A DNA stretch of 64,000 bases from Balanoglossus misakiensis. Its lineage: Eukaryota; Animalia; Hemichordata. Positions within the stretch are counted from its first letter, which is position 1. Every line of letters starts with the position of its first letter. Both the position numbers and the translations under genes were made by a program. Shown in pieces: positions 5,316 through 64,000 of this stretch. The notes under the pieces were generated by a model that saw only the letters and a list, made by a program, of their open reading frames with translations, was not told the DNA's origin and did no database searches. The stretch covers positions 2,325,344-2,389,343 of the forward strand of contig CM082584.2 in the NCBI GenBank assembly GCA_040954595.2. Reading direction: 5' to 3'.

Positions 5316-5358
5316 GCCAGGGTTCGAACCCATGATCCTCTAACCACTGGACTATGAC
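5316..5358 (-). other. Truncated tRNA-like / SINE-head fragment with Pol III A and B boxes
   Basis: Minus strand reads GTCATAGTCCAGTGGTTAGAGGATCATGGGTTCGAACCCTGGC, with A-box-like TAGTCCAGTGG and B-box GGTTCGAACCC. The anticodon arm is missing. Confidence 0.5.
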
Positions 5359-24648: not shown

Positions 24649-24649
24649 T

Positions 24650-27600
24650 ATATGGCAACCAAAGTGACATGACCACTAATGATATTGTTGTCAAACATTG
24701 AACCGCACAGTAAATTAGAACTTGATTTGCCTTGTAGTTGTTGAAAAGATGTCAATTTTTAAGGGTTATCAGAATATCCAATATGGCCACCATTAAGAAG
24801 AAATGGGACAGGCCCAAGCGGTTAGCATGGTTCCAACAGAAAGCAAAGGCTGTTTTGTTGTGGATGCCAAGAAATGGTAAAGTAAGCCAGAGGTCACGCA
24901 AAATTGTGACACAAATTTTTGATCTTAAACTGATCAGTGTCCAACAAAAACCAGACTTGTAAGCTCCATTTGTTTACTTGAAATAGCTTATGTACAAAAT
25001 TATTGTGTTAAAGTTTAATACTTCATTAGTTGTTTCAGTCCTCCAAATTTGAAGACTGTATCTGCTGTGCATGCCAACTTATGGAAAAGTAGATCAAAGG
25101 TCATTGCCATAATTAGCAAAATATTTTGGTTATTTCCTGGCAGCAGCAGTACTCATGTGAACAAAATCATGACTGTTGTGCTTTTTAACAAGAGGCATAT
25201 CCACATAAAATAAGTTCTGGAATTACTGGATCAAAGGGCATATCCACATAAAATAAGTTCTGGAATTACTGGATCAAAGGACATGCGAGAGTCGCAAACA
25301 AATTGTTTATTCAAGTTTTATTATTGTCATTGAACCGCACAGTAAATTAGAACTTGATTTGCCTTGTAGTTGTTTTATAAGATGTCAATTTTTAAAGGTT
25401 ATACGAAAATCCAATATGGCCGCCATGAAGAAGACAATTAAAACTAAAAGCAGCATTGGAGGGACCAAAGCGGTTAGCATGGTTCCAACAGAAAGCAAAG
25501 GCTTTATCTGTTATGGATGCTGAGAAATGGTAAGTAAGCCAGAGGTCACGCAAATTTTGGCCAACAAATTTTGATATCAAACTGAGCTGTGTCCAACAGA
25601 AAACAGACTTCTAAGCTCTTTTGGTTCACTTGAAATAGCTTATGTACATAATTATTGTGTTAAAGTTTAATACTTCATTAGGTGTTCCAGCCAAAAAAAT
25701 TTGAAGACTGTATTTGCTGTTTATTCCAAGTAATGGGATAGTAGATCAAAGGTCATTGCCAAAATTATCAAAAGATTTGGGTTATGTCCTGGCAGCAAAG
25801 GTCATTGCCAAAATTATCAAAAGATTTGGGTTATGTCCTGGCAGCAGTCGTACTCATGTGAACAAAATTATGACTGTTGTGCTTTTTAACAAGAGGCATA
25901 TCCACATAAAATAAGTTCTGGAATTACTGGATCAAAGGACATGCGAGAGTCGCAAACACATTGTTTAATCAAGTTCTGTAAAAACTTGATCAAAGAACAT
26001 GTGAAAGTAGTCTAATAATTGTGATATATTCTGGTCATATGGTGACTCATATCCATAAAAAGAATTTGTGTGGTTTCAATGAGCAGGCTAGAAATAGGAA
26101 ATTTTAGTCTTTTATTGGAGATCAGAAAATCGAATTTGGCTTCAATAAGGTTTACCCAATCACAATTTACTTGAAAACTTGATTAGAAATAGATTTTTGA
26201 AATTTTTTAATGATATTTTTTCAAAAATCCAAAGCCACATGACCACTAATGATATTATTGTCAAACATTGAACTGCACAGTAAATTAGAACTTGATTGGC
26301 CCTGTAGTTTTTGAAAAAAATGTCAACTTTTAAAGGTTATCCGAAAATCCAATATGGCCGCCATGAAGAAGACAATTAAAACATTTACTAAAAGCAGCAT
26401 TTGAGGGACCAAAGCGATTAACATGGTTCCAACATAAAAATGCAAGATTCACAGAAGATTACTTCTTTCAGTTTTACAGGAGATCATCTAAACTTGTAAA
26501 AAAATCTCTCTATTTTTTGCATGGCACCATGGTAAGATATGAAAATTTGCAATGTTTGATGTTCCGTGTCTCAATCATGTTTTATCTAATTTTCACGAAA
26601 TTTCCAGATTATATTGAACACCTATTGCCTGGCCATGAGGGCCATAGCGGCCGTTTATTACACCGGAGGGGTTGTGAGTTACCAGAATCATATGCTATTT
26701 CCCGAGGCCGCAGGCCGAGGGAAATAGCGTATGATTCTGGTAACTCACAGCCACGTGGGGGTAAAAACGGCTGCTATGGCCCGAATATAGGCCAGGCTAT
26801 AGGTGTTTTATAATAAACCTCATGCTGACAGTTTTGGAAAATCATGCAATTTTCTCTTGAGGTTGGCAGACGACATCTTCAGCGGTGGCCATTGTGTCAG
26901 ACGCGACGCTGATTGACGTGACCACGTTTGTCATGTGACCGGTTTATATTTTTTCTGCTATTTCCCTAACGGTTCATAGTCGATTCTATTTTCCTATCAC
27001 GTGACGGATTCTGGCGAATCACGGCACAGTATTAGCATGAGGTATATTATAATACAATATATGTGCAGATACAGATAGTGACTTAAGTTTTTGATATCTG
27101 GATTATAATTTAAATTCCCAGGCGCTCAAATATGGTAAACCTAGCATTTTACCATTGCAAATGGGCGGCCATATTGGGTTGACATTTCATTAGATGGCAA
27201 TATTTGTTTATACACTGCAATTTGCTGAAAATCAGTTCAATCACTGTAGTAAGTGGAAATATTTAAAGTCTTGTGTATTTTAGCAATCATAAAGCTGATA
27301 TTACTACCAAAAACATTTTATACAGTTACTTCTGAACAGCAAAAATTGCCATCATTCAAGTCAAAGTCTCAGATCGGCCCTTTTGCTTGCCTGTGTCGAG
27401 TGGATATCAAAAGTGGAGAAAGTTGGATAGTTTAATTTCTACATGTTACCTGTACTATCCTTGTAGACTATTAACATTAACAAGAATTTCATATTAAATT
27501 TTGGTATGATATGCATGGAAAGACTGGCTGGCTATAAATCATGAAAATGGACGCCGTTGCACCATACAGTTTTTACTGCACACACATGTATTTTAAGCAC

Positions 27601-30600
27601 ACTGTGTCTTTCATGTATTCCACTTTTCTCCCTTCCTTGCTGGCTTTGTCTATTTCTTTTCTGACTGTGTCTTTATGAAATTACTGATTTTTTTTTGGTA
27701 ATTAAACTTCTGGCTCAAATAAATGTACTAGAGCTGGTAAGGTTTCCTGAACATTAATCCCTGTATCTTTAACGCAGGTGTGCAAGTTCATATAAAGTTC
27801 ATTGGTTAAAGGAATATTATGAGCTGATAAATTTACTAAGCTCTTCTTTCCAGTTAGAAGCTCTGCTATATTATCAACTACTCTCAATGCTACTTCAATA
27901 ATGTTGCCTGTGCAAATTGACAATCAAAATATCCATTAGTTAGACAACATATTTGGTTGGGTAATTACAGAATAATTACTTTAATTCCATGCATACTCTA
28001 CCTAAACTCAAATTAGAATATATAACTGAAATTATAATTATAAACAGGTCTATGAAATGCTAAGAAAATGTAAAATCTAGGAAAGAACACCCATGGGCAT
28101 TCAGCTCTTAGCAGATAACATCAGTCACTTTGAAGACATGTCACTTCCCAGACTTTACTAAAAAAACTTCAAACTCTGAAGTGAAACGCATCTCCAAAAA
28201 ATCCAATATGGCAACCATGAAGAAGACAATTAAAGCAACATGCTGCATTGCAGGGGCCAAAGTGGTTTGCATGGTTCCAACATAAAAATGCAAGATTCAC
28301 AGAAGATTACTTCTTTCAGTTTTACAGGAGATCATCTAATCTTGTAAAAAAAATCTCTCTATTTTTTGCATGGCACCATGGTAAAATATGAAAATTTGCA
28401 ATGTTTGATCTTCTGTGTCTCGATCATGTTTGATCTAATTTTCACGAAATTTTCAGATTATATTACAATATATGTGCAGATACAGATAGTGACTTAAGTT
28501 TTTGATATCTGGATTATAATTTAAATTCCCAGGCGCTCAAATATGGTAAACCTAGCATTTTACCATTGCAAATAGGCGGCCTTAATTGGGTTGACATTTC
28601 ATTAGATGGCAATATTTGTTTATACACTGCAATTTGCTGAAAATCAGTTCAATCACTGTAGTAAGTGGAAATATTTAAATTCTGATGTATTTTTAGCAAT
28701 CATAAAGCTGATATTACTACCAAATAAATGCTATACAGTTACTTCTGGACAGCAAAAATTGCCATCATTCAAGTCATAGTCTCAGATCGGCCCTTTTGCT
28801 TGCCTGTGTCGAGCGGATATCAAAAGTGGAGAAAGTTTGATAGTTTAATTTCAACATGTTACCTGTACTATCCTTGTAGACTATTAACATTAACAAGAAT
28901 TTCATATTAAATTTTGGTATGATATGCATGGAAAGACTGGCTGCTTATAAATCATAAAAATTGACGCCGTTGCACCATACAGTTTTTACAGCACACACAC
29001 GTATTTTAAGCAAACTGTGTCGTTCATGTATTCCACTTTTCTCCCTTCCTTGCTGGCTTTCTCTGTTTCTTTTCTGACTGTGTCTTTATGAAATTACTGA
29101 TTTTTTTTGGTAATTCAATTTCTGGCTCAAATAAATGTACTAGAGCTGGTAAGGTTTCCTGAACATTAATCCCTGTATCTTTAACGCAGGTGTGCAAGTT
29201 CATATAAAGTTCATTGGTTAAAGGAATATTATGAGCTGATAAATTTACTAAGCTCTTCTTTCCAGTTAGAAGCTCTGCTATATTATCAACTACTCTTAAT
29301 GCTACTTCAATAATGTTGCCTGTGCAAATTGACAATCAAAATATCCATTAGTTAGACAACATATTTGGTTGGGTAATTACAGAATAATTACTTTAATTCC
29401 ATGCATACCCTTCCTAAACTCAAATTAGAATATATAACTGAAATTATAATTATACACAGGTCTATGAAATGCTAAGAAAATGTAAAATCTAGGAAAGAAC
29501 ACCCATGGGCATTCAGCTCTTAGCAGATAACATCAATCACTTTGAAGACATGTCACTTCCCAGACTTTACTAAAAAATACTTCCAACTCTGAAGTAAAAC
29601 GCATCTCCAAGTTGCATACACAATACTATAATATACTGTTAGAGATTTATAATGTTTTAAGTGAAAAAAATACAGAGATGTAAATACCCCTGCCATTTAT
29701 TCAGTGACATGTAATGCTGCCATTATGCACTGATTGACTCTAGCCACTTTCCCAGTAGGAGGAAAAAGACCATATGCCGTCTTCAGCATAAAAATCTCAG
29801 TTTACTCTGGCTAATTATATTGGAGTTCTTATCAGTGTTTCGGGACGCTTAGATGATAATCGTTGAAATGGACAACACCAACATATGACGTTAACAAGCG
29901 GGAAGAAACAAAAGTTACTCAGTTTTTGGCATTTTATTTTTATTTGCAAGACCGAGAAATTAAAATATGACAAATTTAGAAATCAATCAGATTATACAGC
30001 ATGTCCCACTTTGAATGGTGGCCATATTGGATTCTGAACTCCCTAGTAATATAAACATATAGTGTACTTAGTGAGTCTCAGTATAGGGTAATCAACACAA
30101 TCAGACAAAACTTGGGTTACCCATTGGAATATTCCTATCAAATTTCAAAGCAATCCCATATGCAGTTTCAGAAAAATCAGTATTTTCTCCAAAATTGTAT
30201 AATATCTTACTTCAATCGCTTCAGGGAACATGCCTACCAAAGCTCAAGGCGATCTGACATGCAGTTTGAAAGAAAATAATTTTTGATGAAAAATTCCACA
30301 ACTTTCACACACAAAACGCAAATATGTAAATTTCAAGTATTTTTTTTAAACATCTCATTTAATTATCCCCAAGGAACAAGCCTACCAAATTTGAAAGCAA
30401 TCTCACAAGCGGTTTTAGAGGAAACAATTTTTGACCAAAAATGGCAAAAATTGCTACAAAATTATAAATATGCACATTTTTCATCAACCAGGTTTTCATC
30501 AACTGGGACCACACATACAAAAGTATGCTTCCAAGCAACACGACTCTAGGAGAAAAAATCCTTGTCGCCCTGGTCAAAAAATTGGCTTATACTAAAACAT

Positions 30601-32009
30601 CAAATCGGTTATCTCTCAAAGCTAAAAGGGTTATCACCAAACAGATTACAATGCCTAAGTTAAAATGTTTAAGACATTTTCTTTAGTTGTGGTTTTGGTT
30701 TTATCGGTTTTCCCAATAAAAATTAGGATAATTTTTTAAGTATGCCAACGGAGAGGTGGAAATCTCACCAGAAAAGCGAAAATACACCAACCACGTTTAA
30801 ACCGTAAAATTAAAAAAAAAACACCTGCAAACACCGAGGTGACTCATATAAAAACCTCAAAGAACGTATGGAATTATGTATGGAAAAATACCGTGGTTTC
30901 CTGACCTTCCGCTAAACAAAGACTATACGTATGGAACTATCGTTCCGTCCACCAGCAAAGAGACTTTCCAGAGAAAAACGTTCTACCCGTACCTTATGTC
31001 GCCATAGTGACGTGCCATTTTGCCACAACCGTTCGACAGTATGGTCGACTATTTTGACACTAAACATCCTGCAGCGCTGCCATCCTTTTCAATCTCACAA
31101 ACTGGCCCTACGTGCGCTTAGGCAAGAGGCCTAGCAATAAAAATTTCACAAAATATAACCCTATAAATATGATAAGACTTTCTCGATTATGACTTCCTGG
31201 TCTCCTGATTCGGGAGCCAGCGCAGCCATACCCAGAATAGCCGAGAGGCTAGCTGCACGCCCGTAGCTCGGAATTGTTTCTGGAATTAAACCTACTTCTG
31301 TTCAACTACAAGGTGTTGTACGGATAGCTGCAAGTCACCCAATACCAGACAAAACAATCGAGTGACGGTAACATAGCTAAATAGGCTATTGTACTAAAAG
31401 CAATGATTCGATTATGAGCCTACCGAAAAGACGTCTTGATCCCGCGGCAAGTAGAAGGAAAGTGGTCGAAACCCGGCGTCGCACACCGGAAACGGATCAA
31501 TGATCACCTGTTGTTATGGTGAGTAGAACGTGTTACCCAATCACAGACCAAAGTTAGCATTACGACACACTAATGAATATGCATACATGCTACAGCTGCA
31601 TATTTTATTTCTTTAGAACGCTCTGGAACATGCTCGCATTCGAAAGAATATCTCATTTGCTTTTTGAGTGTGAGTGCCTCATTGTCTACACAATAAAATC
31701 GGGGGGGGGGGGGGGGCACAGTGGGTAATTTCTACCACAGCCACGCATTTCAAACCAGGCAAGCGAACTGCAAACTTCCGATGTCTGAGCAACGGGTTTG
31801 ATGTGCCTTGTGTTGTGAACACTTATTCGACTTCGAGGAAACAGAGCTATAATACTTCCTAATGTGTTTCTCTTTCTGTGTCATTTTGGTCAGTCAGACC
31901 ACGATACCCGAGATCGTAAACTGCTTGGGTTAGGTCGCTTAGGAGGCTGCAACTGCGGCCACAGGTCATGTCGGTGTGTGTTGTAAACAAACATGGTAAA
32001 TGCCTCCCG
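24650..32009. repeat. 7.36-kb tandem segmental duplication, copy B
   Basis: Near-identical to copy A. Differences seen: gattggg vs ggttggg (~20598/27956) and a poly-G run 3 nt longer (~31701). Confidence 0.95.
26615..27052. mobile_element. Duplicate copy of the 438-bp double-hairpin insertion
   Basis: Same sequence at +7358, inside copy B of the duplication. Confidence 0.75.
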
Positions 32010-47361: not shown

Positions 47362-50002
47362 AGAGCATATCTTGCCTTTTTAAATCTTATCAGAAGGTTA
47401 AAAAATGATTGAAAGAAATCTAATATTTACCAAAAGTGACAATATTTTTCGGGTATCGATTTCCATAATATTTGTTTTGTTCTCATAAAATAGACCAGCT
47501 TTAGCGATGCTCACAGGTGTCATACGGTGTTTTCGTGCTTTTCTGTGTAATACCACAATGGGAAAAAGAGGTGGTTGCCGTGGTTGCAGCAACACATTAC
47601 CTAGACGGAAGTCACCCATGTGAATTCCCCGAAAACCAATGAAAGTCTATGCCACGATCATCGATATTGTACGGTGGATATGAAGCCATCCGGCGGCGGC
47701 GGCCGTAACTGTCAATGCATGACCGTTGAACGATAATCGGCCAGGTTTGAATCACGAGAAGACAATCCACACCCTTACAGGAAAATAGAAGCCTGTCAGT
47801 AGGAGAGGTCGACCAGTGATCAATATTCAATTCAGAGCACAACTGATCGTTTATACCCGATATTGGTGTTCATTCAGTGTTCCAGCGACCGCGATTACAC
47901 AGTAGAAGGTGAACTGGCAGGAGGCGTAAACACAATTTTGCGCTGGCCGACATCAAGATTGCTTATAATTATTCACTCTTTCGTCTGGCTACCCGGTACC
48001 CAGGGACCGCAAACTTCGATAATTAAGGTTGACAGCAATCAATGTGAAAACTTGAACGTTCAAAATATTACTGTTACTATTTCACATTTTTTTCAGTCAT
48101 ACCTTTGTATGGCTTCGGGCTGAATGGTCGCCATCTTTCTTTTCTAATTTCTTTGTTTACAAGTTTTACGTCGCACTATGTCCGACTCATCGGTTCCAAA
48201 ACACACTGTACAAATTTTGAAACAAAATGTGTTGAATAAATTTTGCCGCGTGTGAGTGAAAACCGTTTCCAAACTTGGATATTCGTGTGTATCAATGAAA
48301 ATGTTTCATGCTTTGTGAGCGTGAGTGGGTCGGCCCGGCATGATCGCCTGTTGCTGTTGGTTGTATGGTTTCATTTTGTTATAATGCAGTATGAAGCATG
48401 TGAAGGAACTTTCATGATTACAGCGACAAGTCATAAATGTTTCTGTTTGTCATCACCAAAAAGGCATATAGCTTACATGTAATTCAGAAGACAGAATTTT
48501 AGTGCTGGCATGGTACATATACATCGCGGCGCGATATGTGTCATCGCTGCTGACTGCGTGTACACGCATCGGCGCTGATGGAGTTCCCTTGTAATAACAC
48601 GCGCGTATTTTGTCTGTTGAGGCAGTGATCGAAAATCGCCAAAAGACCACGATATATCAGTTGTCAATAAGTTGACATTGTCCAAGATAAGTAGATTGAG
48701 ACCCAACACTCTAGTCCTAAACCTCTGGGCAATATTCCACGGTTTAAGATGGGTCCCCCGGATCTTTTTGCCCGTTGCTATGGGCCTTTGCAGGACATTA
48801 CACCCCGATTTGGACTAAGCCGTTTTCAGAGTCTAACAAGGGGCTGGTAACTAGTTGAAAATCTGCACGATTGTGAGCGCGCGCCCCCTGACGCCATTGA
48901 TATGCAAATTAGCTAGGTCAAATTTCAAAAGCCTAAGGCTTTTTATTCCGTGACCTCAAAAACGAACTTGATACGTATTCATTAGTTGCTTGAACCAGGG
49001 AAGATCGTGACGGATTTTGTTTTCGAATATTATCGTTGTATCCTACGATTTCAGCATACCCGTACCACAGCGGAAAAAGTCATCGATTTTAGGTGTTTTT
49101 GGACGCACTCTTCCACCGGTATCGCTTCTTAGCACGACGAAAACCGAAAAAACGATCCGTCACACTGTGAGGAAGTGCGTTCTCAACAAGCAGGTCAAAT
49201 TTGACTGGCGTACGTGGCCTATGAAAAAAGCCTTAGGGATTTTCGTGAACGGTACAAAATCTCTGTGTACAAAACATTGGATTTTTAGCGTTCGATCCAG
49301 TTACTGTGGTCACAGGACGCGCATGCTATCGCTGACCGCTGCTTTACCGTATTAGCGTGGCGGCCTATGGCCGGGCGGTAGCTGCCGTAAACATACTCGG
49401 ACAGGGGGTGTGTACACAATCGTGTGTATTTTTAACTAGTCACAAGCCCCTTGTCGGACGTTCATAACGGTTTCGATCAAAATTGAGTGTAGTGTCCTAT
49501 AAAGGCCCATAGAAACGAGCAAAAAGATACGGGGGACCCATCTTAATCGAGGCAGCAATCATTGTATGTGTAAGGTGCCTATACACATCCGCTGCCATTG
49601 CATGTTGTGTACTGCTTGCAATGCGTAGCCGTAGCCTAACCGGGCCGAGTAGTGTTATTTTTTTCATAATCGCATCTCCCCTAGATGAAAAGGTATATAT
49701 GTACATTTATTTTGAATGGAACGGGGGATCCAGAGGCTGACCCAGCAAAGCTGTTTAGATCACAGACATGTATGATTGCAATTCAACCACTGTAATGTAC
49801 AGTCTTGCAAACGTAAATGGGTTCCTCTTGTGACGTCACAGAAATGGGCGTGGCCCAAACAGAAGTTTTTTCTCAGGCCCTGAACATTTTTAAATTTAAC
49901 ATTTATTTATCCATATGAAATAAGTAAAAGGACACCAGCATTTAACACACAAGCCCAATTATTATTTATCCTCAAAGTGTGTTTCGAGCTAAGATATACT
50001 CT
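47362..50002. mobile_element. Non-autonomous Kolobok-like DNA transposon (2.64 kb)
   Basis: TTAA|AGAGCATATCTT ... AAGATATACTCT|TTAA: 12-bp TIR (11/12), purine-purine termini and a TTAA TSD. No transposase ORF seen. Confidence 0.75.
48748..49542. mobile_element. Kolobok-like MITE (795 bp) nested inside the previous element
   Basis: TTAA|GATGGGTCCCCCG... and ...CGGGGGACCCATC|TTAA. The imperfect TIR extends ~125 bp, to cacgattgtg / cacaatcgtg. Confidence 0.88.
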
Positions 50003-51037: not shown

Positions 51038-51226
51038 GAAGTGTCCCTTACGAAAAAGGTTCTATAGAACTCTATAGACCTCTATAGAAACGTGTAGAAA
51101 TCAATAGAAAATCAATAGAAATTTATTTTCTATAGAATTCTACAGGTGACTTCTATTAATTTTCAACAGAAAATCAATAGAATATTATTTTCTATAGAAT
51201 TATACAGATGATTTCCATTAAACTAG

Positions 51227-52650
51227 CCGTCAATAGATTTTCTATTGAAAATATTACCTAGCATGAAATAAGTGAAAAATGATTTTTAATAGGTTTTAAC
51301 ATGATTATCATACAATGACAAAGCAATTTGTAAGATTTGCCCCCATTACACATATTTCACTGTGAACAAAGTATATTTTAACAGAAATCCACAGACTCTA
51401 TTGAATTCTATTGATGTCAATAGATTTTCTATTGAAAAATATTGTCAACCTTGAAATGGTTGAAAGAAATATTTTTCCCTAGTTTTTAGCAAATGTGTGC
51501 ACATAATCATCACAAAATGAAAAGGAATTTGTCAGGTTTGCCCCAACTACATACATTTCACTGTGAACAGTGTATTTTAACAAAAATCCACTGTCTCTAT
51601 TGAATTCTATTGCCGTCAATAGATTTTCTATTGAAAAATATTGCCAACCATGAAATAGATGAAAGAAACATTTTCCCCTAGTTTTTAGCAAATGTGTGCA
51701 CATAATCAACACAAAATGACAAATGAATTTGTCAGGTTTGGCCCAACTACATATATTTCACTGTGAACAGTGTATTTTAACAAAAATCCACTGACTCTAT
51801 TGAATTCTATTGCCGTCAATAGATTTTCTATTGAAAAATATTGTCAACCTTGAAATGGTTGAAAGAAATATTTTTCCCTAGTTTTTAGCAAATGTGTGCA
51901 CATAATCATCACAAAATGACAAAGGAATTTGTCAGGTTTGCCCCAACTACATACATTTCACTGTGAACAGTGTATTTTAACAAAAGCCACTGTCTCTATT
52001 GAATTCTATTGCCGTCAATAGATTTTCTATTGAAAAATATTGCCAACCATGAAATAGGTGAAAGAAACATTTTCCCCTAGTTTTTAGCAAATGTGTGCAC
52101 ATAATCATCACAAAACGACAAATGAATTTGTCAGGTTTGGCCCAACTACATATATTTCACTGTGAACAGTGTATTTTAACAAAAATCCACTGTCTCTATT
52201 GAATTCTATTGCCGTCAATAGATTTTCTATTGAAAAATATTGCCAACCATGAAATAGGTGAAAGAAACATTTTCCCCTAGTTTTTAGCAAATGTGTGCAC
52301 ATAATCAACACAAAACGACAAATGAATTTGTCAGGTTTGGCCCAACTACATATATTTCACTGTGAACAGTGTATTTTAACAAAAATCCACTGACTCTATT
52401 GAATTCTATTGCCGTCAATAGATTTTCTATTGAAAAATATTGCCAACCATGAAATAGGTGAAAGAAACATTTTCCCCTAGTTTTTAGCAAATGTGTGCAC
52501 ATAATCATCACAAAATGACAAAGAGTTTGTCAGGTTTGCCCCAACTACATACATTTCACTGTGAACAGTGTATTTTAACAAAAATCCACTGTCTCTATTG
52601 AATTCTATTGCCGTCAATAGATTTTCTATTGAAAAATATTGCCAACCATG
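51227..52650. repeat. Left subterminal ~200-bp tandem repeat (about 7 copies)
   Basis: The anchor gtttttagcaaatgtgtgc occurs at 51482, 51681, 51881, 52080, 52280 and 52480. Each unit has the cluster ctctattgaattctattgccgtcaatagattttctattga. Confidence 0.95.
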
Positions 52651-52976
52651 ACCGGACGCTAAGGATTTTGATTTAGGCGAAGATTGTATCGTTTGGCCAT
52701 GGAAAGTAACCAGTTCACCCCGAGCAAACAGATACCAGTATACATTCAGCTCAAACACACAGCTATTCATTCTTAATCATTCTATTTTATATTGTGAATG
52801 AATACTTGACAAATATGTCTCTGTAAATAATTCATTTATTACAATTTCAAAATGATATCTGCAAAACACTGGTACATATACAAATCTGTATATAAATACA
52901 AATCAGAAGAAACGGACTCTCAACTACAGTACTGGGGTAAGTGTTTGCTACCTACAGACTTTTTTTGCAGCCCTTA

Positions 52977-55900
52977 TCAGTCCCTTTCAAAAGGGTTGGG
53001 GAGTGGTGAGAGGTAAATTGACTCACCCATTCCAAGAACTACACATTTACGTCTCAAAAACGACGGTCGCACAGCAATTCTTTCATGTGAAATCTCACGC
53101 AGTGGTTTTACATATGTACACTGTATGCCAATTTCATTGTCAACAAACATTGACCTCCCACTTAAACACCTACTGGCTATCAGGAATGATCTTTCATTAC
53201 AGTGACAATCACCTTGGCATATGCAACCTGGCCTAAGAATTACAAGGTTTCTTATTACATACAATTGCTCATCTTGTCCCTGAAAATAATGGTTCGTTCT
53301 CTTTGCTGCCCTAGTGTAGCTACTTGTTGTGAACACAGCACCTGATATAGTGAATCTCTTGTAATATTTGGCATTCACATTCAAGATAGGGTGGCCCACA
53401 GCCTCCTCTATAGCTAACCTGTCTGTCAATCTTATTTCCCGTTTGTCAGCAGCTCCCATGGCCACAACCCCTGAGCAGCTATGAAAGTCCCTCTTTAAAT
53501 GCACAATTCCTCTAGACAATTTGTCAAATAGTGGCCTCAGATCACTATCCTGTGGTATAATTGTGGATCTTCTTGATAAATCTCTCCACAGACAGAATGT
53601 GTTTGATATCTGTGAAGGCACACTTTGAGTACCCTGAAATAGCTTCATGATTACACCATTGTGACTTTCAAACACAAAGGAAGATGTAGCCCAGAGAGGT
53701 GCCCATTCCCTAACACTACTAGACAAATGCAGTAGAATGTGCATATTAAATGACATCACTTCTTTCCCATAAAGGCATTCAGTTTGAGTCACAAACTTTC
53801 TGATTGCCTGCTCTGCCAGATCAACAGAGCGGGCTGTTACTTTTTCCTGAAGTAACGTGTGGATTCCAAAAACCAGCAAAAACCAATGGTTCAGAAAAAC
53901 TGCAGGTAACACACCTCTCAGAACAATTAAAGAATAGAAAAGGAGAAATGCCCTCCACTCCGAACCTTTCCAATACTTTCTGTAATCTAACGATCGTGGT
54001 GTCCTGGTTATTTCATTTGGAGGAAACTGCTGCATCAAACGGGAATTAATTACACGTTGTTTAGCAGGGGCTAAGTACCAGGGTTTCTGCTTGTTTTCAC
54101 TGTCAAGCCAAAGTGAGGTGATTTGCCTGACAACCCCTAATAAAACACAATGCAAAAAATCAGGAACAAACCCTTTCACAATGTCGAAATTGGGAAGCAA
54201 CATACACACACTGGGTCCCTTCACACCCAATATTGGTCGGTCTCTTTCAACCGCCTGCCTACAACAATCCTCATACTGATCGTTATTCCTCAACTCAGGA
54301 TGAGGAAGATCCTGTACACTATATACACGTGCATGACCATTGCCCTTTGCTATGTATTCCCCTGGGTGCAGGCACCAGTCACATCCATACTGCCCATTAT
54401 ACTGTTTGCAATTGCGCATCAAAGGCCTGGCAGCTGAATCAGAAGAACACAATAACACATGGACACATGTTGTGATTATCTCACCAGAACTTTGATTTCT
54501 CCAGGTAAAACCATCATTACCCAATTTCACACATTCTTCAACAAATGGTGCCAAAAAACAATCCATCTGTGGTTTGGATTGACCAAACCATAGGCCAGGC
54601 ATGAGAATATTTTGTTTTTGACATTTTGGAGTCAGTTCTGTCACTACACACTGAATGGGCCATATTGAGAAACCAGAGGACTTAAAGGCAGGGACCCCAT
54701 CACAATTCCAGAGAAGGGTTAAGTCATTATCTCTTATGATACCATTTTCAAGGAGATCTTGATAAATGGAGCCATCCAATAAATTTGAAACTGACAATTC
54801 ACTATTAATATTCTGATTTTCTAATAAATCTACAAGTTGGTCCTTGATTGGCATTACAATGAAAAAATTGTTATTTGCTACAGATATTTGCTCACTGAAA
54901 GGCTCATTACAGCTACCACAAGTGGTGTCAGTTTGAATTTCGCCCTCGGCACCAAGATATGCCATACAACTACAGCAATAGAAGTGCTTCTTACACGACA
55001 CAGCTGTCTCAGCAAAACAGTTCTTAAAAAAGTATGGTGTTGCTGGTACAGTTTCTGGTGCTATCAGGTTAATGACGTGCAACAAGTCTTTGAGAGCATC
55101 TTTTGTAAGTCGGTGTCTGAGGACAAAAGCCTGGAGAAGTAGACAAAGCTGTTCTGTTGTGACATTCATCTCTCCAGTTCCTTCTTCAGCTCCCTGAGAA
55201 TTAGAAAAATAGTAGTACATTTAGAAAAATAGGACAACCAGAAATAACATGAACAATGCAATGGTCACACTCACAGGACTGACACATTTAATTGTGATTT
55301 GACATTTGTGAAAACAGGTTCTGATCTCTTATGCATTGATCACCAGATTTTGAAAACAGGGGTCATGCTCTAAATAATAGGCCTCCTTGAGAATTAAAAT
55401 AAATGCATTCACAACCATAGAGACACTAGCTTTCATACTTGTATTTTATAATAACGATGTGTATTAAGTTGCATTAACATATAAAACAGATTGATTAGTG
55501 GAATACTAAACGATGTTGTAATAGCTAAACAAATAAAAAAAATTTAAATTTCCGATGATCAAAAGTTGGTCACATTGCTAAAAGAATAGAGACATTTTGG
55601 TGTGTATCACTGTCATGTTTCTGTCAAGGAATCAATGTGTATATTGCACCATGTCCACTTTTTCAAGTTGTAAATGCACACCCTTCAGTAAGTACACTTA
55701 CTTTGAAAGTAAATCATCAAAATAATGTAAAAAGTCATAGATCATAAGTGATTAAGGTAAGTTACCGCACAAAATTCAAATTGGCAACCATAAATTTTTT
55801 AAAGTCAAAAGCAGAACCTACCAATTCATCACCACTTTCTCCTGTGCCCGTCCCATTAGTGTTTTCGTTTGATATGCGTGTGTGTATAATTTCTTCACTT

Positions 55901-56871
55901 TCTTCAATCTCTCCACTTCCGCCACTCAGTAAGTTGACATGTGACGTTTCCTGAGCTGGTACTTGGTCATCTATGATGAATGATGTCTGATCATCTGATG
56001 TTTCGTCGGCTGATAAATAGTCATCTGTGTCTGGTTCTGTAGTGCTGTATTCATCAATGTCTGTATCTCTGTGAGAGAAAGTTAGTCCACTTCGATAACT
56101 GTCATGAGAGGCGTTACCATCATATAAATATTCATCATTGCCACTTTCAGATTGGTAGTCACTATTTACAGAACAACTGTCAGTGTCGATGGCGATATCA
56201 TCAGTCTGAAAGATATGAATAGAATGTGGTTAAGATATGTATTTCAGTATAGCAGGACTACATAATGCATATTACATCATTTGATTCTAAATCTCAGAGG
56301 AAAGTGCTAATGCTTTAATAGTTCTTATAAAGAAAAGTAGGCTGGTGTCAGTAATGACCTGTTTTTTTTTTTTTTTTTTCCCTAAATATTCGTAGTACTA
56401 AATTATTTTTCAATTAAAAAATACTGCAGCGGCATAAATGCTGCTATATTTAGACAAAGAGTTGGAGATGTACAAGCTAGCCTTTTGGACTTTAATAAAA
56501 CCAAAAACAACAGAAATAAAATGCATACACTACCTATGACACCCTATAATTATAACAATCACCGAGAAATGACAGACAATGCCAGTTTTCGCCCGGCGCT
56601 TGCTGCAGTTCCGTAGCCAGCAACTTTCCTCGATGTGTGTGTTACGGAAGGGGCACCTTTCCGTAACACACACATCGAGGAATGTTGCAGGCTACGGAAC
56701 TGCAGCTGCAGCAAGCGCGGCGCATACTTCAGGCCGTGGTAAAAAAAGAGCTACACTTACCTCTAAACCATGTTTATCGCGAATTCGCCATCTAAACAAG
56801 GTTCTCTTTGGAATACTGACTTCGGTATCATTTAGGTAACGCTTGTATGGACCGCGCACGACCCTCGACAT
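52977..56871 (-). CDS. CACTA/EnSpm (TnpD-like) DDE transposase, ~903 aa, 3 exons
   Basis: Exons 56761-56871 (MSRVVRGPYKRYLNDTEVSIPKRTLFRWRIRDKHGLE), 55822-56205 (acidic linker) and 52977-55193; both introns are phase 0, GT-AG. CMC motifs: HFYCCSC...CGSC, LLWNCDGVPAFKSS..SIWP, CSSDSAAR..NCKQYNGQYGCDWC, DFLHCVLLG, WKGSEW, FNMHILLHL, SSFVFES. A minus-strand AATAAA lies at 52835-52840. Confidence 0.93.
56596..56718. repeat. Near-perfect ~55-bp-arm hairpin in transposase intron 1
   Basis: gcgcttgctgcagttccgtagccagcaactttcctcgatgtgtgtgttacggaa, short loop, ttccgtaacacacacatcgaggaatgttgcaggctacggaactgcag(ctgcag)caagcgc. Confidence 0.9.
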
Positions 56872-57310
56872 GTCTCTTCCGCGACGAACAGCGATCTGAT
56901 GATCTAGTGAATCAGCTGTGCAAGCGTCGGTGACTGCGGTGCATGCTGGGTGATAGATATGGCATCATCTCAAGTACAAATTTTAACGTTCCGATCGATC
57001 TGTGGTACTACTTTAAGGTGAATTTTGGCGTTTCAAAATAAAGTGAATGATATCTTAACGTGTTTTTTTTTCAAATAACATCTCAGCTCTAAGAAATGCT
57101 GTATTTTAAAATCACATGACCTACTGCATGACCTTTGACTCTTCTCATAAACGCCCGCATTTCTTACCCAGCATGCATCGAGGTAAATAAATAGTCGGCG
57201 AACTCCTGACCTTTTACAGCTGATTCAGTAACCACCGAAGACACACTACGCGTCACTCGCTACCAGCTCCGCTTAAGATTTCGCTATTTACGAACGTCGA
57301 TCTAGTCACC
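56872..57310. promoter_or_regulatory. Putative bidirectional promoter with mirrored Staf/ZNF143-type sites and CAGCTG/Inr-like motifs
   Basis: 439 bp between divergent ATGs. Minus strand: TCACCCAGCATGCACCGCA (56935-56953), then ACAGCTGATTCACT. Plus strand: TTACCCAGCATGCATCGAG (57164-57182), then ACAGCTGATTCAGT (57216-57229). Confidence 0.75.
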
Positions 57311-60300
57311 ATGAAGTACGCTTTATTTGATTTTTACGAAGAAAAGAGTGTTGAAGTTGGTGAGACGAATTGGATAGAAGATCTCGATGAAGACGACGTT
57401 ATGAGTTTTGACTTCGACGAAGATTGTGCTGTCCAGTGGTCATCAAAGAAGGCAGGAAGAGATCCGGCGAGATATGTAGCAAAAGTTATCAAGTTTAGCG
57501 GTAAGAATTGTTTGGATTTTTTCAAAACTCAAAAAAAACGTGTCAGGTAGAAACATTTCCCAATGTTGAAGACGTTCATTGTAGAAAGTTACCTTTATCT
57601 CGATCCCAGGGTCTTGGGCTCCCTTGAACCAAACACAGCTTGTTTACTTCCTGTTCATTGTTATACTATTTGCATAACAAAACGAGTTGCCAGGAAAGCC
57701 AGCAACCCCTTTGTTTTACTTTGTGACACAATTTTTTTACGTGGTTTGTGTTGTGCATTTTTGATCGTCAGCAAAAGTTTCTCATTCAGTTGTGTGTGTG
57801 TGTGTTTTTCACAACCAGGTCATAATGTTTATCTTTACAGATGACAGGCAGGAGCTGTTGCGACTAGCCAACGTCTATGTCAAAAAAGGGGTGAACACAA
57901 ACATTAAGACTCCAGAATATGGACGGGGGAAACGTGAAAAGGCACCAAAGAGAATCTACACCGACAGCGAAGATGATGAAGATGATTATGTACCGGTAAG
58001 TTGATATTTAACTACCATGTGGCTGATGCAGAATTCAATATGATTTATCTAGGTACAGATGATATTAATTTCTCGTTGTCAATATAAACACCCATTTTCA
58101 AAACTCCATGCCAAGTGTTCAGAAGTATCTCACAATAATCATTTCATTTCTTTTTTAGGAAAAAAATAACTTGAATAAAAAAAAGAAGATCAGCCAAAAG
58201 AATTCGTCTTTAAATTTGCTGAGAAAGTTAGAAAGCAAGAAGACATCTGAAGTTCGTAAAAAAATGGAGGAGGATGTCCAGTCACTTAAGTCTGTAAGTA
58301 CTGGCAATGTCATACGCCACAATTTCTGCCCCTGAAGCATATACTTTTACTTCCAAACTTGCACAAAAGCTAAAATAATGCTGACGTATAAGAGAGTGTT
58401 GTGAGCTTGTGTGGCTTAATTATGAAACAGGGATTGCACTAGTGTTTGCTCAGAATGAGTCCCTGTCACATGAAATTAAAGACAGGAAATTAAAATTTTT
58501 GTATTTATGTGAGAGATGGGACCCCTCTGTGTAAAAAGTAAGAGTCCCCCTGAAAAGTTCGGGAAGCAAAATATGGGGTTAACGCAACCCCTGCAAAATG
58601 TATCTTTAAAATGTGAGCAAAGTTATGCAATTATTGAAACTAATAATATTTCCATCAAAAAGTGACTGCAGTTCAGTGCTGTTGATGGGTAAATATCACA
58701 AGCATGTTGAAATCCATGTATGAACTGTGTTGTTATTGTTGACAACTGTGATTTTTAGTCTATTTCATTAATGTTCCTCTGCATTCTAGAGTTCATTCCG
58801 TGCTTCAACACCAGTGTCCAGTGGCTCAGAAGGCTATGATGAGGACAAGCTACACCAAGAAATAAGGGAATTGAAGGAGGAAAATGCTGCACTACGCTAT
58901 TCTCTTCGAGTGTTAAAAGGTAAAAGAATATTGATACACGCATTGAATAAAGTCAGTGGATTGTTTTAGTTCTTGTATATTTTTAATGCAATGAGTAGGT
59001 TTTAGCTGAATCAAATTATTTTGTCAGTGTTTTTTTTGTTTTATTTTTAGAAATATCAAAAGTCAACAGCCAAAATATGCCACAGAATGACTGTTTTTGA
59101 AAATACTCATGAATATCACAAAAGAACATCATTTTCGGCATTTTTTTGACGAGAAATTGAAGTATCAAGGACTCCATATATGTTTTGAAATACAAAGTAA
59201 AATGTTACCATAATTAATTTATAAATGAAAAACATTTAATTTATTCACTTGTACATGATGACTAAGCTGGGCAAGCTGTAACTTACCTTTTTCAGCACCA
59301 ATGAAAGCCTTCATTTGTGACCAGCTTTCTCAAACTATGTGTTTTGTAGTTACTTGACAATAGTTTGATAATGCTGGTCAGTATGTAAACATCTCAGTTC
59401 ACCACAATTAAAATAATTTTGTTTATGGATGATGGTCCACTGTCTTATTGGTTAACAATATTTTTTTGCCAGGATTGTCTCTTTTTTATTCCTTTTCCTA
59501 TGAACTATTGGAGTTAAATCAATGAACATATGTCCTATACCTCTATTTTCTAATCTTTTCAAATGGTATAGAGTTACCTGGCCTGCTTGGACAAATTGCT
59601 GATGTAAAAAGAACATTTGGTGTAAAGACTGGTGCACCTGCAGTCTCAAAGACAAATAAATCCAGTGGAACACATGATGCCCAATTGAACAGTGAAGAGG
59701 TAACTGTTGACATCTATTTCAATTTATCATGAATGTCTGATTTCAGGAATCTGCATAGACATAGTCATAGTCATTCAAATAATACTTCTGCTTCTTAGGT
59801 TCAACCATATGGCCTAAGTAAGAAAATTCTTTGTTCTGCATGTGTATGTTTTGCGAGATTTCATGAAAAAAACTTTTCTGCCTGCAAATTTTTGTATACA
59901 TGCTTTGGGAAATGTGATTGGAACACCTGCATGCTTGCAGAATGTCACATTTGAGTGCAACTTAACAGGGTGAAAAATTAGTTTCTGCTGAGATTCTTGA
60001 TAAGGTGCTTGTATTACATGGAAACTATCGAGTAAATATTAAATTTACCTGTTAAAAATTTCTGTGTTTCTGAACTTGTGCACTTACCTATCAAAATCTG
60101 AGTAGATGCAAAACAAAGAATTTAATTATTTTGGTCATAAAGTTTTTGTTTATTTATCTGCAGACCTGATGATTGCAACTCTGTTTAGAACAGATCATGG
60201 CTCTGCAACTTTACTTCCATGGAAAATGTGGTTGTATTGTTAGAGCTGTTGATTTCATAGAAAATAGAAAGTATTGTAAGAACTCTGTGATAGAGTTTTT

Positions 60301-61138
60301 ACTGTACTTTCTATTTTATCAGGTTTTCTATGACAGTAATCATATTTATTTTGTGTCTGCCTCTAGTGTTACCAATTATTTTGGTCTTTTTCAGATTTTG
60401 GTCAATGATGAGATGATAGTAACTGCCAAGCAGCTGAGCCGCGTTGACAAATCAACAGCGAAGAAAATGACGTATGATTTGATGGCAGTGGTGTTTGATA
60501 GGGAAACACTCAGGACTCATTCGTATAGTGGCAGAGTGTGCAACTCAGTCAAGGGTTCTTTACCCAAACCAGCGCTGGATGCCGACAAAATAAGAGCCAT
60601 TAAAGGTATGTAGGTATTAAGTTACTTATCATCTCCAATTATTAATTTGCTATTTTAGGTCATAGGAATACACAAAGATATATTGGCATTTTGTATATTT
60701 GGAGTGATCAGTGATGTATACCTCTTTAACATAGTGTAACCTGCTGTAGATAGGGTGCAAATTTTGCAGTGCTTTTGCAAAATCTGCTTTGGTCTGCTAA
60801 TGGAGACCTGTATGTGGAATGAGATAGGCCATCTTTAAAAAGTTGTAAAAGCGTTTAAGGGACTGCGAATCAAATATACCATTCTCTCTACCGTAACCTT
60901 GATATATTTTCATTTAGTTTGTTCTTTGTTTCTGGCGGTTAGGTTTTAGAAAAAAAAAATATAGTATGGCAAACAAAGACATCTCTAAGGTTTGAGCTTT
61001 GGTTCAGTACAATTTCATTCAGCAATTATTTTTCTCTGTTTCCCCACAGATATTGTATGCAGCAAGTTTGACTGCAAGGTTGCTGAGGTGGAGCAGTACA
61101 TTAAAATGAAAATTTACTCCGAAGCAAAACACAAGTAG
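57311..61138 (+). CDS. Transposon-encoded coiled-coil plus C-terminal BEN-domain protein, ~345 aa, 7 exons
   Basis: Exons 57311-57500, 57841-57995, 58159-58293, 58790-58919, 59572-59699, 60395-60605 and 61050-61138; all introns GT-AG, phase-consistent, with no stops. Coiled coil LHQEIRELKEENAALRYSL. BEN-like C-terminus KMTYDLMAVVFDRETLRTHSYSG...PKPALDADKIRAIKDIV...VEQYIKMKI. AATAAA at 61227. Confidence 0.85.
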
Positions 61139-61463
61139 TGTGGTTAACTGTTTCATTTATGTGTTTTGCTTATCTTTATTTATTTAAACTCTATTTTTCA
61201 TGTCACCTTTTTTATTGATTTATTGCAATAAAATGTTAAGTTTTAATTTGATGAGTATGTTGGTTTTTTCTCAAATATTTCACTGAAAGCCAGCAGAAAA
61301 CTAATTTGACTGAGGCAACACTGTATTTAGCACATTTATGTGTTAATATTAAACAACAGACTGAAAGAATATGCTGAGTATTCAGTGAAGTATTTTTTTT
61401 TATAAATATCAATCTTTTTGCCCGAATCCCACCCCTCTGTCTTTGGTAACCAGATAATACAGG

Positions 61464-62390
61464 ATCAATACACATCTATAACTCTTCTATAGAAGTTCAA
61501 TAGAAAATCAATTGAAATCTATATCTCTTCTATAGAAAATCAATACACATCTATAACTCTTTTATAGAAGTTCAATAGAAAATCAATTGAAATCTATATC
61601 TCTTCTATAGAAAATCAATAGCATATCAATGGAAATCTAGATCTCTTCTATAGAAAATCAATACACATCGATAACTCTTCTATAGAAAATCAATAGAATA
61701 TCAATTGAAATCTATATCTCTTCTATAGAAAATCAATACACATCGATAACTCTTCTATAGAAAATCAATAGAATATCAATTGAAATCTATATCTCTTCTA
61801 TAGAAAATCAATACACATCTATAACGCTTTTATAGAAGTTCAATAGAAAATCAATTGAAATCTAGATCTCTTCTATAGAAAATCAATACACATCGATAAC
61901 TCTTCTATAGAAAATCAATAGAATATCAATTGAAATCTATATCTCTTCTATAGAAAATCAATACACATCGATAACTCTTCTATAGAAAATCAATAGAATA
62001 TCAATTGAAATCTATATCTCTTCTATAGAAAATCAATACACATCTATAACTCTTTTATAGAAGTTCAATAGAAAATCAATTGAAATCTATATCTCTTCTA
62101 TAGAAAATCAATACACATCGATAACTCTTCTATAGAAAATCAATAGAATATCAATTGAAATCTATATCTCTTCTATAGAAAATCAATACACATCTATAAC
62201 TCTTCTATAGAAGTTCAATAGAAAATCAATTGAAATCTATATCTCTTCTATAGAAGTTTAATTGAAAAGTGGCCAAAAGTCCATAGAAGTCAATAGAATT
62301 TCCATAGAAATTCCATTGAGTTTCCATGGAATATCCATTGATTCTTAATAGAAATTTTTATTGAAAAGCAATAGAAGTTCTATAGAACTT
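61464..62390. repeat. Right subterminal 75-bp tandem repeat built from ~11-bp TCWATWGAA sub-units
   Basis: atcaatacacatc recurs at 61464, 61539, 61657, 61732 and 61807 (mostly a 75-bp period). Units are made of tctatagaa, tcaatagaa and tcaattgaa; degenerate ~11-mers continue into the TIR. Confidence 0.95.
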
Positions 62391-64000
62391 TTTCGTAAGG
62401 GAATCAATCAAAGTGTATTATAAAACCAGATTCCAAGAAAATACAGCTGTTCAAAGGGGCTTAGGCTTTTTTCATCTTCACTTGTCAGGTTGATATGACT
62501 ATTGTTAGTATGCAGTGTTGTATGAAATGTTTTACATCGCTTACTTACCTCACCCAACATGGCAGCCAATTGTTCTACAGTAAATCCACTGTAATTAATA
62601 CTACCTTGACTTGGCAAAGGATATGGAGGAGAGTTCAGATCAATATACAATGTTTCTATATTGGTGCGCTGTATACAAAGAGAAGATAAAACAATATTTT
62701 GTTATTGGCAGTATTGTCAGTCAGTGTTTTTTTTTAACCCTTCCACCCCAATTTCCTCTTCAGTGCTCCAACCTTAACATAGAAAACAATGCAGTTGGAC
62801 TGAACCATTGTGGTGATCAGGGTAATGTAACCAGGGTTCCCCAGTCATTTTGTTAACATTCCTTATGGTACCATAAATGCAGTCATATTAATGGTAAGAC
62901 AGGTGTTACATGGGGTTTCAAAATCACTTATTGCTCCACCCCCCCCCCCCCAACAATAGCCAAAATACTGTCAGTGTTATCCAAATTCTTATTTCACACC
63001 TGTTACAACTAACAAGGTATCTGTCGCAGTCATTTTATGCTCTTTTAGTATCCAGGATCTATTGTCGATGATATAATTAGGTATCCCAATGAATTTTTTT
63101 AACTTTCCTAAATCACATTTTTGTTAGTTTCATTGAAAAGTACATAGAATTTCATGAAAAATGATACCTCATTTTAAAAAATTGACCAAAGATTAAGCAA
63201 GATTGAGCAATATTTGACCTTTAAGGTCAACGACCTTTTCAAAATTACTAAAAAGCAGCATTTTCACAGCCTCATAGAATTTTACCAAAAATTGTAAACA
63301 TACTTCATCATGCCTTTTCCTGTAGAAAACAACCTATTAAATGTCATTTTAAAATTGAACAGCATGTTTAAAGAGGAGTTTTAGGGCAAATCACTACCAA
63401 AAAATGACAAAAACTCAATTTTGTGCAATGTGAAAATACCAAAAATTGGCCTTTCGGGCATTTTCATAGTTCTCTAAAAAAAAATGTTTCAAAGTTAGGA
63501 GTCTAAAACTGATTATAGTCTTACTAAATGTTACCCTTAAAATGCCTATTTTTTTCTGTGTACAAAAAATAACTGTAACTGGGAGAAAAATGGGCCTGAA
63601 AATGTTAATTTTGCCAATTTTACTTAGTGATAAAATGTGCTAAAATTTACCAAAAATCGCAATTTTCAAATGCGCATAAAATCAAAACCATACAAGCTAA
63701 TCACATGAAACTTTCAGGATGTATTCATTTTTATTTGTTCTTTACAAATAATGAGAAATTGTTGCTATATAAGTTTCACATTTGCTTCAATAAATTCTCT
63801 AAATTTGATTTAATCTGCTAAACTGCGCCAAAATCCACAAAAATGTGACATTGTAAGTGAAGTCGAAATGACTCGTTTTAGCAGTTTTAGCATTATTTTT
63901 ATATGGTTATATGGTAAGCTACATTTAAAAACTGGACAAACAAAAACTGAAGCTTGTGTCAAGGTATGTACTAGTTTTTTATTTTTCTTATTGTCAAGTT

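Follow-up and report, generated by a model that had tools for sequence, protein, structure and literature searches.

Palindrome arrays at the ends of a hemichordate EnSpm transposon are candidate docking sites for an element-encoded BEN protein

The two ends of an EnSpm/CACTA transposon in the hemichordate Balanoglossus misakiensis are packed with short palindromes, which we consider to be, with some reserve, probable docking sites for dimers of a protein encoded by the element itself. This protein combines a Tudor-like domain, a coiled coil and a BEN domain, and by analogy with plant TnpA it would coat both ends of the transposon. New to this work are a tip-anchored lattice of sites measured over four motif classes, a difference between the two ends, and a full-length match to the vertebrate protein BEND6 together with a motif prediction. 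If the proposal is true, the second gene of the element (ORF2) would provide animal EnSpm elements with their so far missing equivalent of TnpA. Each family would then supply a BEN domain along with the motif written in its own ends, offering dozens of natural pairs for the study of BEN recognition.

An EnSpm element with palindromes at both ends

The stretch of DNA analysed (hereafter the window) is 64,000 nucleotides long, and the features relevant to the element are listed below.

51045..62401, strand not applicable: EnSpm/CACTA DNA transposon (animal CCC type), 11,357 bp (~11.4 kb), both genes open, recognized by TIRs, Transposase_21, BEN and junctions
51045..51070, forward strand: left TIR, 26 bp, starts with CCC, first palindrome at position 17
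51061..51248, strand not applicable: left subterminal array, 10 exact sites, about five in phase, contains a 62-bp duplication (51101-51221)
51299..52651, strand not applicable: 200-bp tandem array, 6.8 copies, 3-4 sites per unit
52977..56871, reverse strand: transposase gene, model exons 56871-56761, 56205-55771 and 55193-52977, 920 aa
57311..61138, forward strand: ORF2, predicted model with seven GT-AG exons, 345 aa without stops
57311-57500, 57841-57995, 58159-58293, 58790-58919, 59572-59699, 60395-60605 and 61050-61138, forward strand: ORF2 exons, GT-AG
61465..62257, strand not applicable: tandem array of a 75-bp higher-order unit with seven site positions, spaced at 10.71 bp per site
62247..62386, strand not applicable: tip-proximal non-tandem array, 12 degenerate palindromes, period 11.0
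62377..62401, reverse strand: right TIR, 25 bp
62402..62403, forward strand: AA, right copy of the 2-bp target duplication, matching the left junction in run X1 and not that in the window

The element carries the hallmarks of the animal CCC-type EnSpm group, namely a Transposase_21 domain, TIRs that begin with CCC (25 identical bases plus one indel), a 2-bp duplication and subterminal repeats at both ends. It is flanked in the window by GT on the left and AA on the right, with no target duplication in the window itself. However, contigs of run X1 have a left junction that ends in AA, on the same sequence as is found before the right flank at empty sites, and insertion of the right end thus produced an AA duplication. 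The left flank of the window continues differently in X1, X2 and X4, with X2 showing a third left junction, such that at least three left junctions exist among the contigs of the sample (X1 and X2 represent one sample, possibly the source of the window); both flanks are themselves multi-copy repeats. The window copy therefore joins ends from different insertion sites and is the product of an adjacent deletion, a recombination event or a mis-join. No relative was found in viral contigs.

Exact matches to TCWATWGA number 73 in the window, compared with 8.2 expected (none of 100 shuffles reaches 73), and 72 of them reside inside the element, all in two terminal zones (51061-52632 and 61486-62386). 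The original prediction that the arrays sit at a transposon end is thus borne out. Ten sites fall in 51046-51260, 22 in 51261-52660 (the 200-bp tandem) and 40 in 61461-62402, with no exact match in the 8.8-kb interior (52661-61460). This empty interior is the reason that promoter autoregulation through the palindromes was rejected. The interval 61464-62390 holds 40 sites versus 0.7 from local dinucleotide shuffles (maximum 5, n=300), and a loose form of the motif gives 8 sites versus 0.08 from such shuffles in the last 160 bp, which are non-tandem. The motif is broader than TCWATWGA and is better described as TC[ACT]AT[AGT]GA flanked by T/A.

The array at 61465-62257 is made up of nine 75-bp units plus a single 118-bp unit, and the eight units compared are 91-100% identical. 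Words about 10-11 bp apart in a 75-bp unit had been predicted from the sequence, and both the units and the spacing were recovered: the seven site positions of each unit are separated by gaps of 10 or 11 bp, although no more than four are exact sites and three positions are degenerate. The right-end array is 25% GC with 28 A/T runs. Most of its span is probably the result of recent tandem copying, so that function may require no more than the tip-proximal sites. There, the non-tandem row begins 16 bp from the tip.

The same words had been said to pack 51061-51250 at the left end, and this holds for the ten exact sites but not for their regularity, which breaks down after about five sites (gaps 10, 10, 20, 11, then 17, 23 and so on). 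The 62-bp duplication in this array is polymorphic, being absent from some contigs. The adjoining 200-bp tandem, where sites are spaced 10, 10 and 11 bp apart, did not figure in the original prediction. That prediction also placed the sites within an extended TIR, a reading that was rejected because TIR identity ends after 25 bp. The TIR contains only the first site, and therefore the arrays are subterminal repeats.

A tip-anchored lattice in related elements

A transposase profile search of metagenome contigs yielded 253 related stretches, and 80 of these were analysed. Dense palindrome clusters are present in 16 of the 18 loci that have at least 2.5 kb downstream of the transposase, and none of the 80 transposase coding regions reaches the density of such a cluster. 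We located 30 transposase-side tips, removed five near-duplicates, added the left end of the window and left out two further copies of L043. Two ends (L001 and L070) were dropped when the motif learner found fewer than five sites, which resulted in a set of 24 ends. Their motifs include TTCTATAGAA, TACCATGGTA and related CCATGG forms, TACTATAGTA and ACATATATGT, and every one is a dyad with AT at its centre.

In 17 of the 24 ends, base 16 marks the start of the first site, and the pooled sites peak at 16, 27, 37/38, 47/48, 57/58 and 68/69. The best pooled period is 10.45 bp (R 0.86 for 112 sites within 70 bp; R 0.60 for 72 sites at 70-130 bp), while individual ends have periods of 10.0-10.75 bp with a median of 10.43. 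Across the four palindrome classes the periods are 10.2 (the TCTATAGA class), 10.35, 10.4 and 10.65 bp. Gaps of 13-45 bp stay in phase and avoid half-turn values (mean cosine 0.53 versus -0.16 for random placement), and up to 135 bp the phase recovers past off-lattice gaps (0 of 2000 shuffles). Shuffling the order of gaps lowers long-range coherence, with 0 of 1000 shuffles matching the real ends, or 0 of 2000 when anchored at the tip; these p-values overstate independence because the 24 ends are related by descent and in-register copying keeps phase. Of the two ends that had been dropped, L070 fits the lattice when read with a hand-made pattern (period 10.35), and L001, treated likewise, shares the 14-bp tip of the window but has a sparse and unphased array. 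The outer element of L045, which has too little room for ORF2, shows no 10.5-bp period at its ends above coding-sequence controls.

True helical phasing is a family trait of the transposase-side end, which is opposite to the end at 61464-62390. At the window's right end, the period is 11.0 bp near the tip and 10.71 bp in the 75-bp unit, R at 10.45 bp is only 0.41, and the sites drift by 27-76 degrees per 75-bp unit. Because of this 10.7-11.0-bp period, the sites wind slowly around the helix rather than lying on one face. Of the original idea that one-turn spacing places the sites on a single DNA face, the spacing is upheld by the tip-anchored lattice of relatives, whereas at the right end of the window a single face applies only to a few consecutive sites; alignment on a single face along the whole array was rejected on the basis of the drift. 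Only one other BEN-side end was found. It belongs to the complete element L002 and has a period of 12.35 bp, with its first two sites at 16 and 27, as in the window. If the proposal is right, the lattice would supply a geometric rule for EnSpm ends, in which sites start 16 bp from the tip and recur every 10.45 bp, that could be used when annotating or reviving elements.

The tip sequence CCCTTAC occurs with TTCTATAGAA, CCATGG-type, AAGTATACTT and TCATGA-type arrays. Tip and palindrome thus vary separately, which fits two different readers.

As a side observation, locus L045 also carries two MITEs (810-1183 and 1680-2127) that share a tip almost identical to that of the window, have TCATGA-type sites and are bounded by clean 2-bp duplications (AA/AA and AT/AT). 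The MITE at 1680-2127 is nested in another CCC-tipped element.

A head-to-head gene pair and the candidate readers of the palindromes

The transposase ORF matches Pfam PF02992 (Transposase_21; E 1.5e-8, 34.6 bits, above cut-off), and the predicted 920-aa protein, which is one of several open splice models, is 64% identical to a 919-aa protein from the acorn worm Glandiceps talaboti. Residues D173, D260 and H356 in the long ORF are invariant among 55 transposase homologs, and E517 is the putative third acidic residue, assigned by pattern alone. The first intron of the transposase model contains a near-perfect 51-bp inverted repeat (56602-56706; hairpin -94 kcal/mol, z -16.6), which could be a source of small RNAs or a tiny inserted element. 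Between the two predicted start codons lie 439 bp (56872-57310) that hold no palindrome site and are likely to form a bidirectional promoter.

Besides the transposase, the only recognizable DNA-binding family in the element is the BEN domain of ORF2 (Pfam PF10523; E 5.9e-7, 30 bits, above cut-off), whose closest relatives of solved structure are BEND6 (E 4e-5), Insv (E 1e-3) and Bsg25A. The best full-length homolog of ORF2 among 156 BEN matches is a Ptychodera protein with 31% identity over residues 2-343, and the predicted model of this homolog comprises a beta-rich N-terminal domain followed by a 52-residue helix and a BEN fold. A coiled-coil BEN protein had been predicted for the element, and the model agrees by combining a coiled coil with a BEN domain of the BEND6/Insv class. 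The N-terminal 63 residues of the window's ORF2, encoded by the first exon, are modelled with a pLDDT of 84 and resemble the KDM4/ARID4 hybrid Tudor (Foldseek E 0.11, TM 0.71). Their Z score of 7.7 (short of the tool's mark of 8), with an rmsd of 1.7 over 55 residues, constitutes a moderate match.

Gene order is retained in relatives, as ORF2 is kept head-to-head with the transposase across distant families. Profile searches, for which several loci served as seeds, found the BEN exon in this arrangement in 8 of the 80 relative loci and the N-terminal exon in 14, always upstream and on the opposite strand; most other loci are too short upstream. Single-sequence searches recovered the two exons in six and five loci, respectively, at E<0.01. 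Six of the eight BEN exons pass the Pfam cut-off. Searching a word index with just the BEN exon gave no match, although the profile searches did.

We propose that two BEN domains, held together by the coiled coil, would take each palindrome. The transposase would hold the tip of approximately 13 bp, ORF2 dimers would fill the palindromes from base 16 inward, and the one-turn lattice would keep neighbouring dimers aligned with one another as well as with the transposase. Ends coated in this manner could then pair, thereby licensing cutting. At the right end of the window, where the spacing is 10.7-11 bp, the dimers would wind slowly around the helix instead of lying in a flat row. There are precedents for parts of this scheme in published work: Insv binds palindromes as a homodimer (PMC4281564), and full-length BANP, with its coiled coil, is oligomeric (PMC11472053). 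The site itself is not that of Insv, to which the words had originally been likened. TCYAATHRGAA, the consensus for Insv, does not occur in the element and occurs once elsewhere in the window (0.7 expected), and the palindrome is 2 bp shorter, so an Insv site was rejected and the likeness is one of resemblance only.

A different possibility is that the transposase itself reads the palindromes through an N-terminal or zinc-binding part, as a multimer that needs a fixed phase to the tip, while ORF2 serves some other role such as chromatin targeting by its Tudor-like domain. We judge this to be unlikely but deserving of serious attention. It would explain why the lattice is anchored at the tip and tightest within 70 bp, and it accommodates the finding that motif class tracks the transposase tree (six changes against a minimum of five on a quick tree). 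Because of this tracking, co-descent does not single out BEN. When co-variation of motif and BEN sequence was checked, as had been suggested at the outset, both genes gave the same grouping, and BEN and transposase are not separable with the six elements that have both a motif and a BEN exon. Moreover, the window element and L002 both use TTCTATAGAA, yet differ in helix 5 at BEND6 positions 261/262 (Y/S versus N/I) while K265 is kept (base-contact numbering as in PMC10206803).

Recognition by a transposase also has a parallel in the hAT element Hermes, for which PMC10368747 describes palindromic subterminal sites bound cooperatively and in strict phase to the TIR; BED domains bind a subterminal quasi-palindrome, and exact phasing matters. 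Hermes differs in that its own transposase BED finger is the binder, the repeats are 4 bp long, the superfamily is another one and there is no second gene. Several observations favour ORF2 over the transposase as the reader. One tip is combined with different palindromes, the arrays extend over 150-900 bp and are longer than one transpososome, and ORF2 stays head-to-head with the transposase across distant families. Furthermore, the accessory protein is the binder in plant CACTA elements: PMC2613891 reports that maize TnpA, not the transposase, recognizes the subterminal repeats and is needed together with TnpD.

It is improbable, in our estimation, that the arrays are by-products of slippage or unequal exchange, with one or two tip-adjacent sites of importance and the 10-11-bp spacing reflecting abutting 10-bp units. 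In favour of this view, the 75-bp and 200-bp arrays consist of tandem copies with 91-100% identity, three out of seven positions in the 75-bp unit are degenerate and the 62-bp duplication is polymorphic. The BEN-side periods (11.0 and 12.35) are non-helical, and duplication in register can keep a lattice without selection. However, by-products would not be expected to converge on 10.2-10.65 bp in four palindrome classes, to regain phase after off-lattice gaps out to 135 bp or to avoid half-turn gaps. Whether ORF2 or the transposase is the reader, most of the 75-bp array may have arisen by passive amplification. Least credible is the notion that periodic T/A-rich words merely shape the DNA, by bending or by nucleosome positioning at the ends, with no sequence-specific binder, since palindromes with more GC, such as TACCATGGTA, sit on the same lattice and family-specific dyads of 8-10 bp exceed the information needed for bending, even though the array is rich in A/T runs and the 10.2-bp period of the TCTATAGA class is near the nucleosomal value.

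BEND6, other host BEN genes and related transposons

Between ORF2 and caecilian BEND6, identity is 29% in a 352-column alignment that takes in the N-terminal domain and coiled coil, and the N-terminal 80 residues alone give a z of 25 in this comparison. The opossum BEND6 record has no match to the N-terminal domain of ORF2. BEND6 records from caecilians, axolotl, opossum, mole-rat, gar and bowfin form one group, and this group together with the transposon-linked L032, L033 and L070 splits from six other transposon BENs with support of 96/96 in an unrooted tree of 74 columns (the alternative grouping, at p-AU 0.054, is not rejected). L070 and L033 possess TAC...GTA-type arrays, and for L032 a motif of this type is visible at its contig edge and also in L027, whose first ORF2 exon is identical.

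On the evidence of these alignments and groupings, vertebrate BEND6, a Notch antagonist in neural stem cells, may have arisen from an element-encoded helper. PMC11472053 describes its preferred motif as unidentified. We tentatively advance a broader scheme, while leaning somewhat against its holding in full: the Tudor-coiled-coil-BEN helper of animal EnSpm elements would polymerise on a tip-anchored, one-turn palindrome lattice, BEND6 would be a tamed copy from the TACYATRGTA clade with TACYATRGTA as its site, and Insv-type factors may share this origin. If true, this would provide a concrete guess for the BEND6 motif and a transposon origin for the gene.

Other BEN genes show related patterns. 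Transposon-linked BEN exons in L062 (858-1073) and L075 (256-477) group with Insv-like proteins and not with BEND6 (support 87), hinting at a second domestication; the contigs stop short of the ends of these two elements. Pipefish proteins P0124-P0126, annotated as "BEND6-like", start with a sequence that resembles the first exon of the transposase and continue as ORF2, which points either to a first exon used by both genes, as for maize TnpA/TnpD, or to an annotation that fuses the two. The P0140, P0144, P0194 and P0246 clusters from fish and ants, which include multi-locus genes annotated as BEND6-like, insensitive-like or early boundary activity-like, are probably copies of transposon ORF2. 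Insensitive, Bsg25A/Elba1 and vertebrate BEND6 belong to the same BEN subclass as ORF2, but they are host transcription factors that do not reside on transposons, whereas ORF2 is transposon-encoded.

Maize En/Spm and other plant CACTA elements have in common with the window element a Transposase_21 domain, short TIRs, reiterated subterminal repeats of 10-20 bp and a second element-encoded DNA-binding protein (PMC2613891, PMC8978399), and subterminal repeats are described as standard in CACTA elements in PMC8978399. Plant elements have CACTA tips and a 3-bp duplication, whereas the window element has CCC tips and a 2-bp duplication, its repeat is itself a palindrome that in relatives lies on a tip-anchored helical lattice, and it lacks sites near its internal gene starts. 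Unlike in maize En/Spm, its second protein comes from a gene of its own, divergently oriented, that combines Tudor-like, coiled-coil and BEN parts. Animal TRC/EnSpm elements (SmTRC1 of Schistosoma and the TRCs of Tribolium and Aedes) share with it the CCC TIR core, a 2-bp direct repeat, Transposase_21 and internal tandem repeats (PMC1636069). The palindromic subterminal array present in the window element is not described for them in the passages of PMC1636069 examined.

No paper that links BEN to EnSpm/CACTA or describes a tip-anchored lattice was found in the literature searched, although an earlier description elsewhere is possible. Passages of 10.64898/2026.08.24.746577, PMC10027918, PMC11075544, PMC5704228 and PMC8887127 contain neither.

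The remainder of the window has repeats of its own. Positions 1-5316 form a non-coding tandem array of 175/192-bp units in approximately 28 copies. A 7,358-bp direct duplication with 99.95% identity occupies 17292-32009, inside a nest of shorter repeats (10.3-32 kb), and is either very recent or an assembly artefact. Finally, an 800-bp element at 48744-49546, with 143-bp inverted arms that are 78% identical, is a probable old MITE outside the EnSpm family of 51045-62401.
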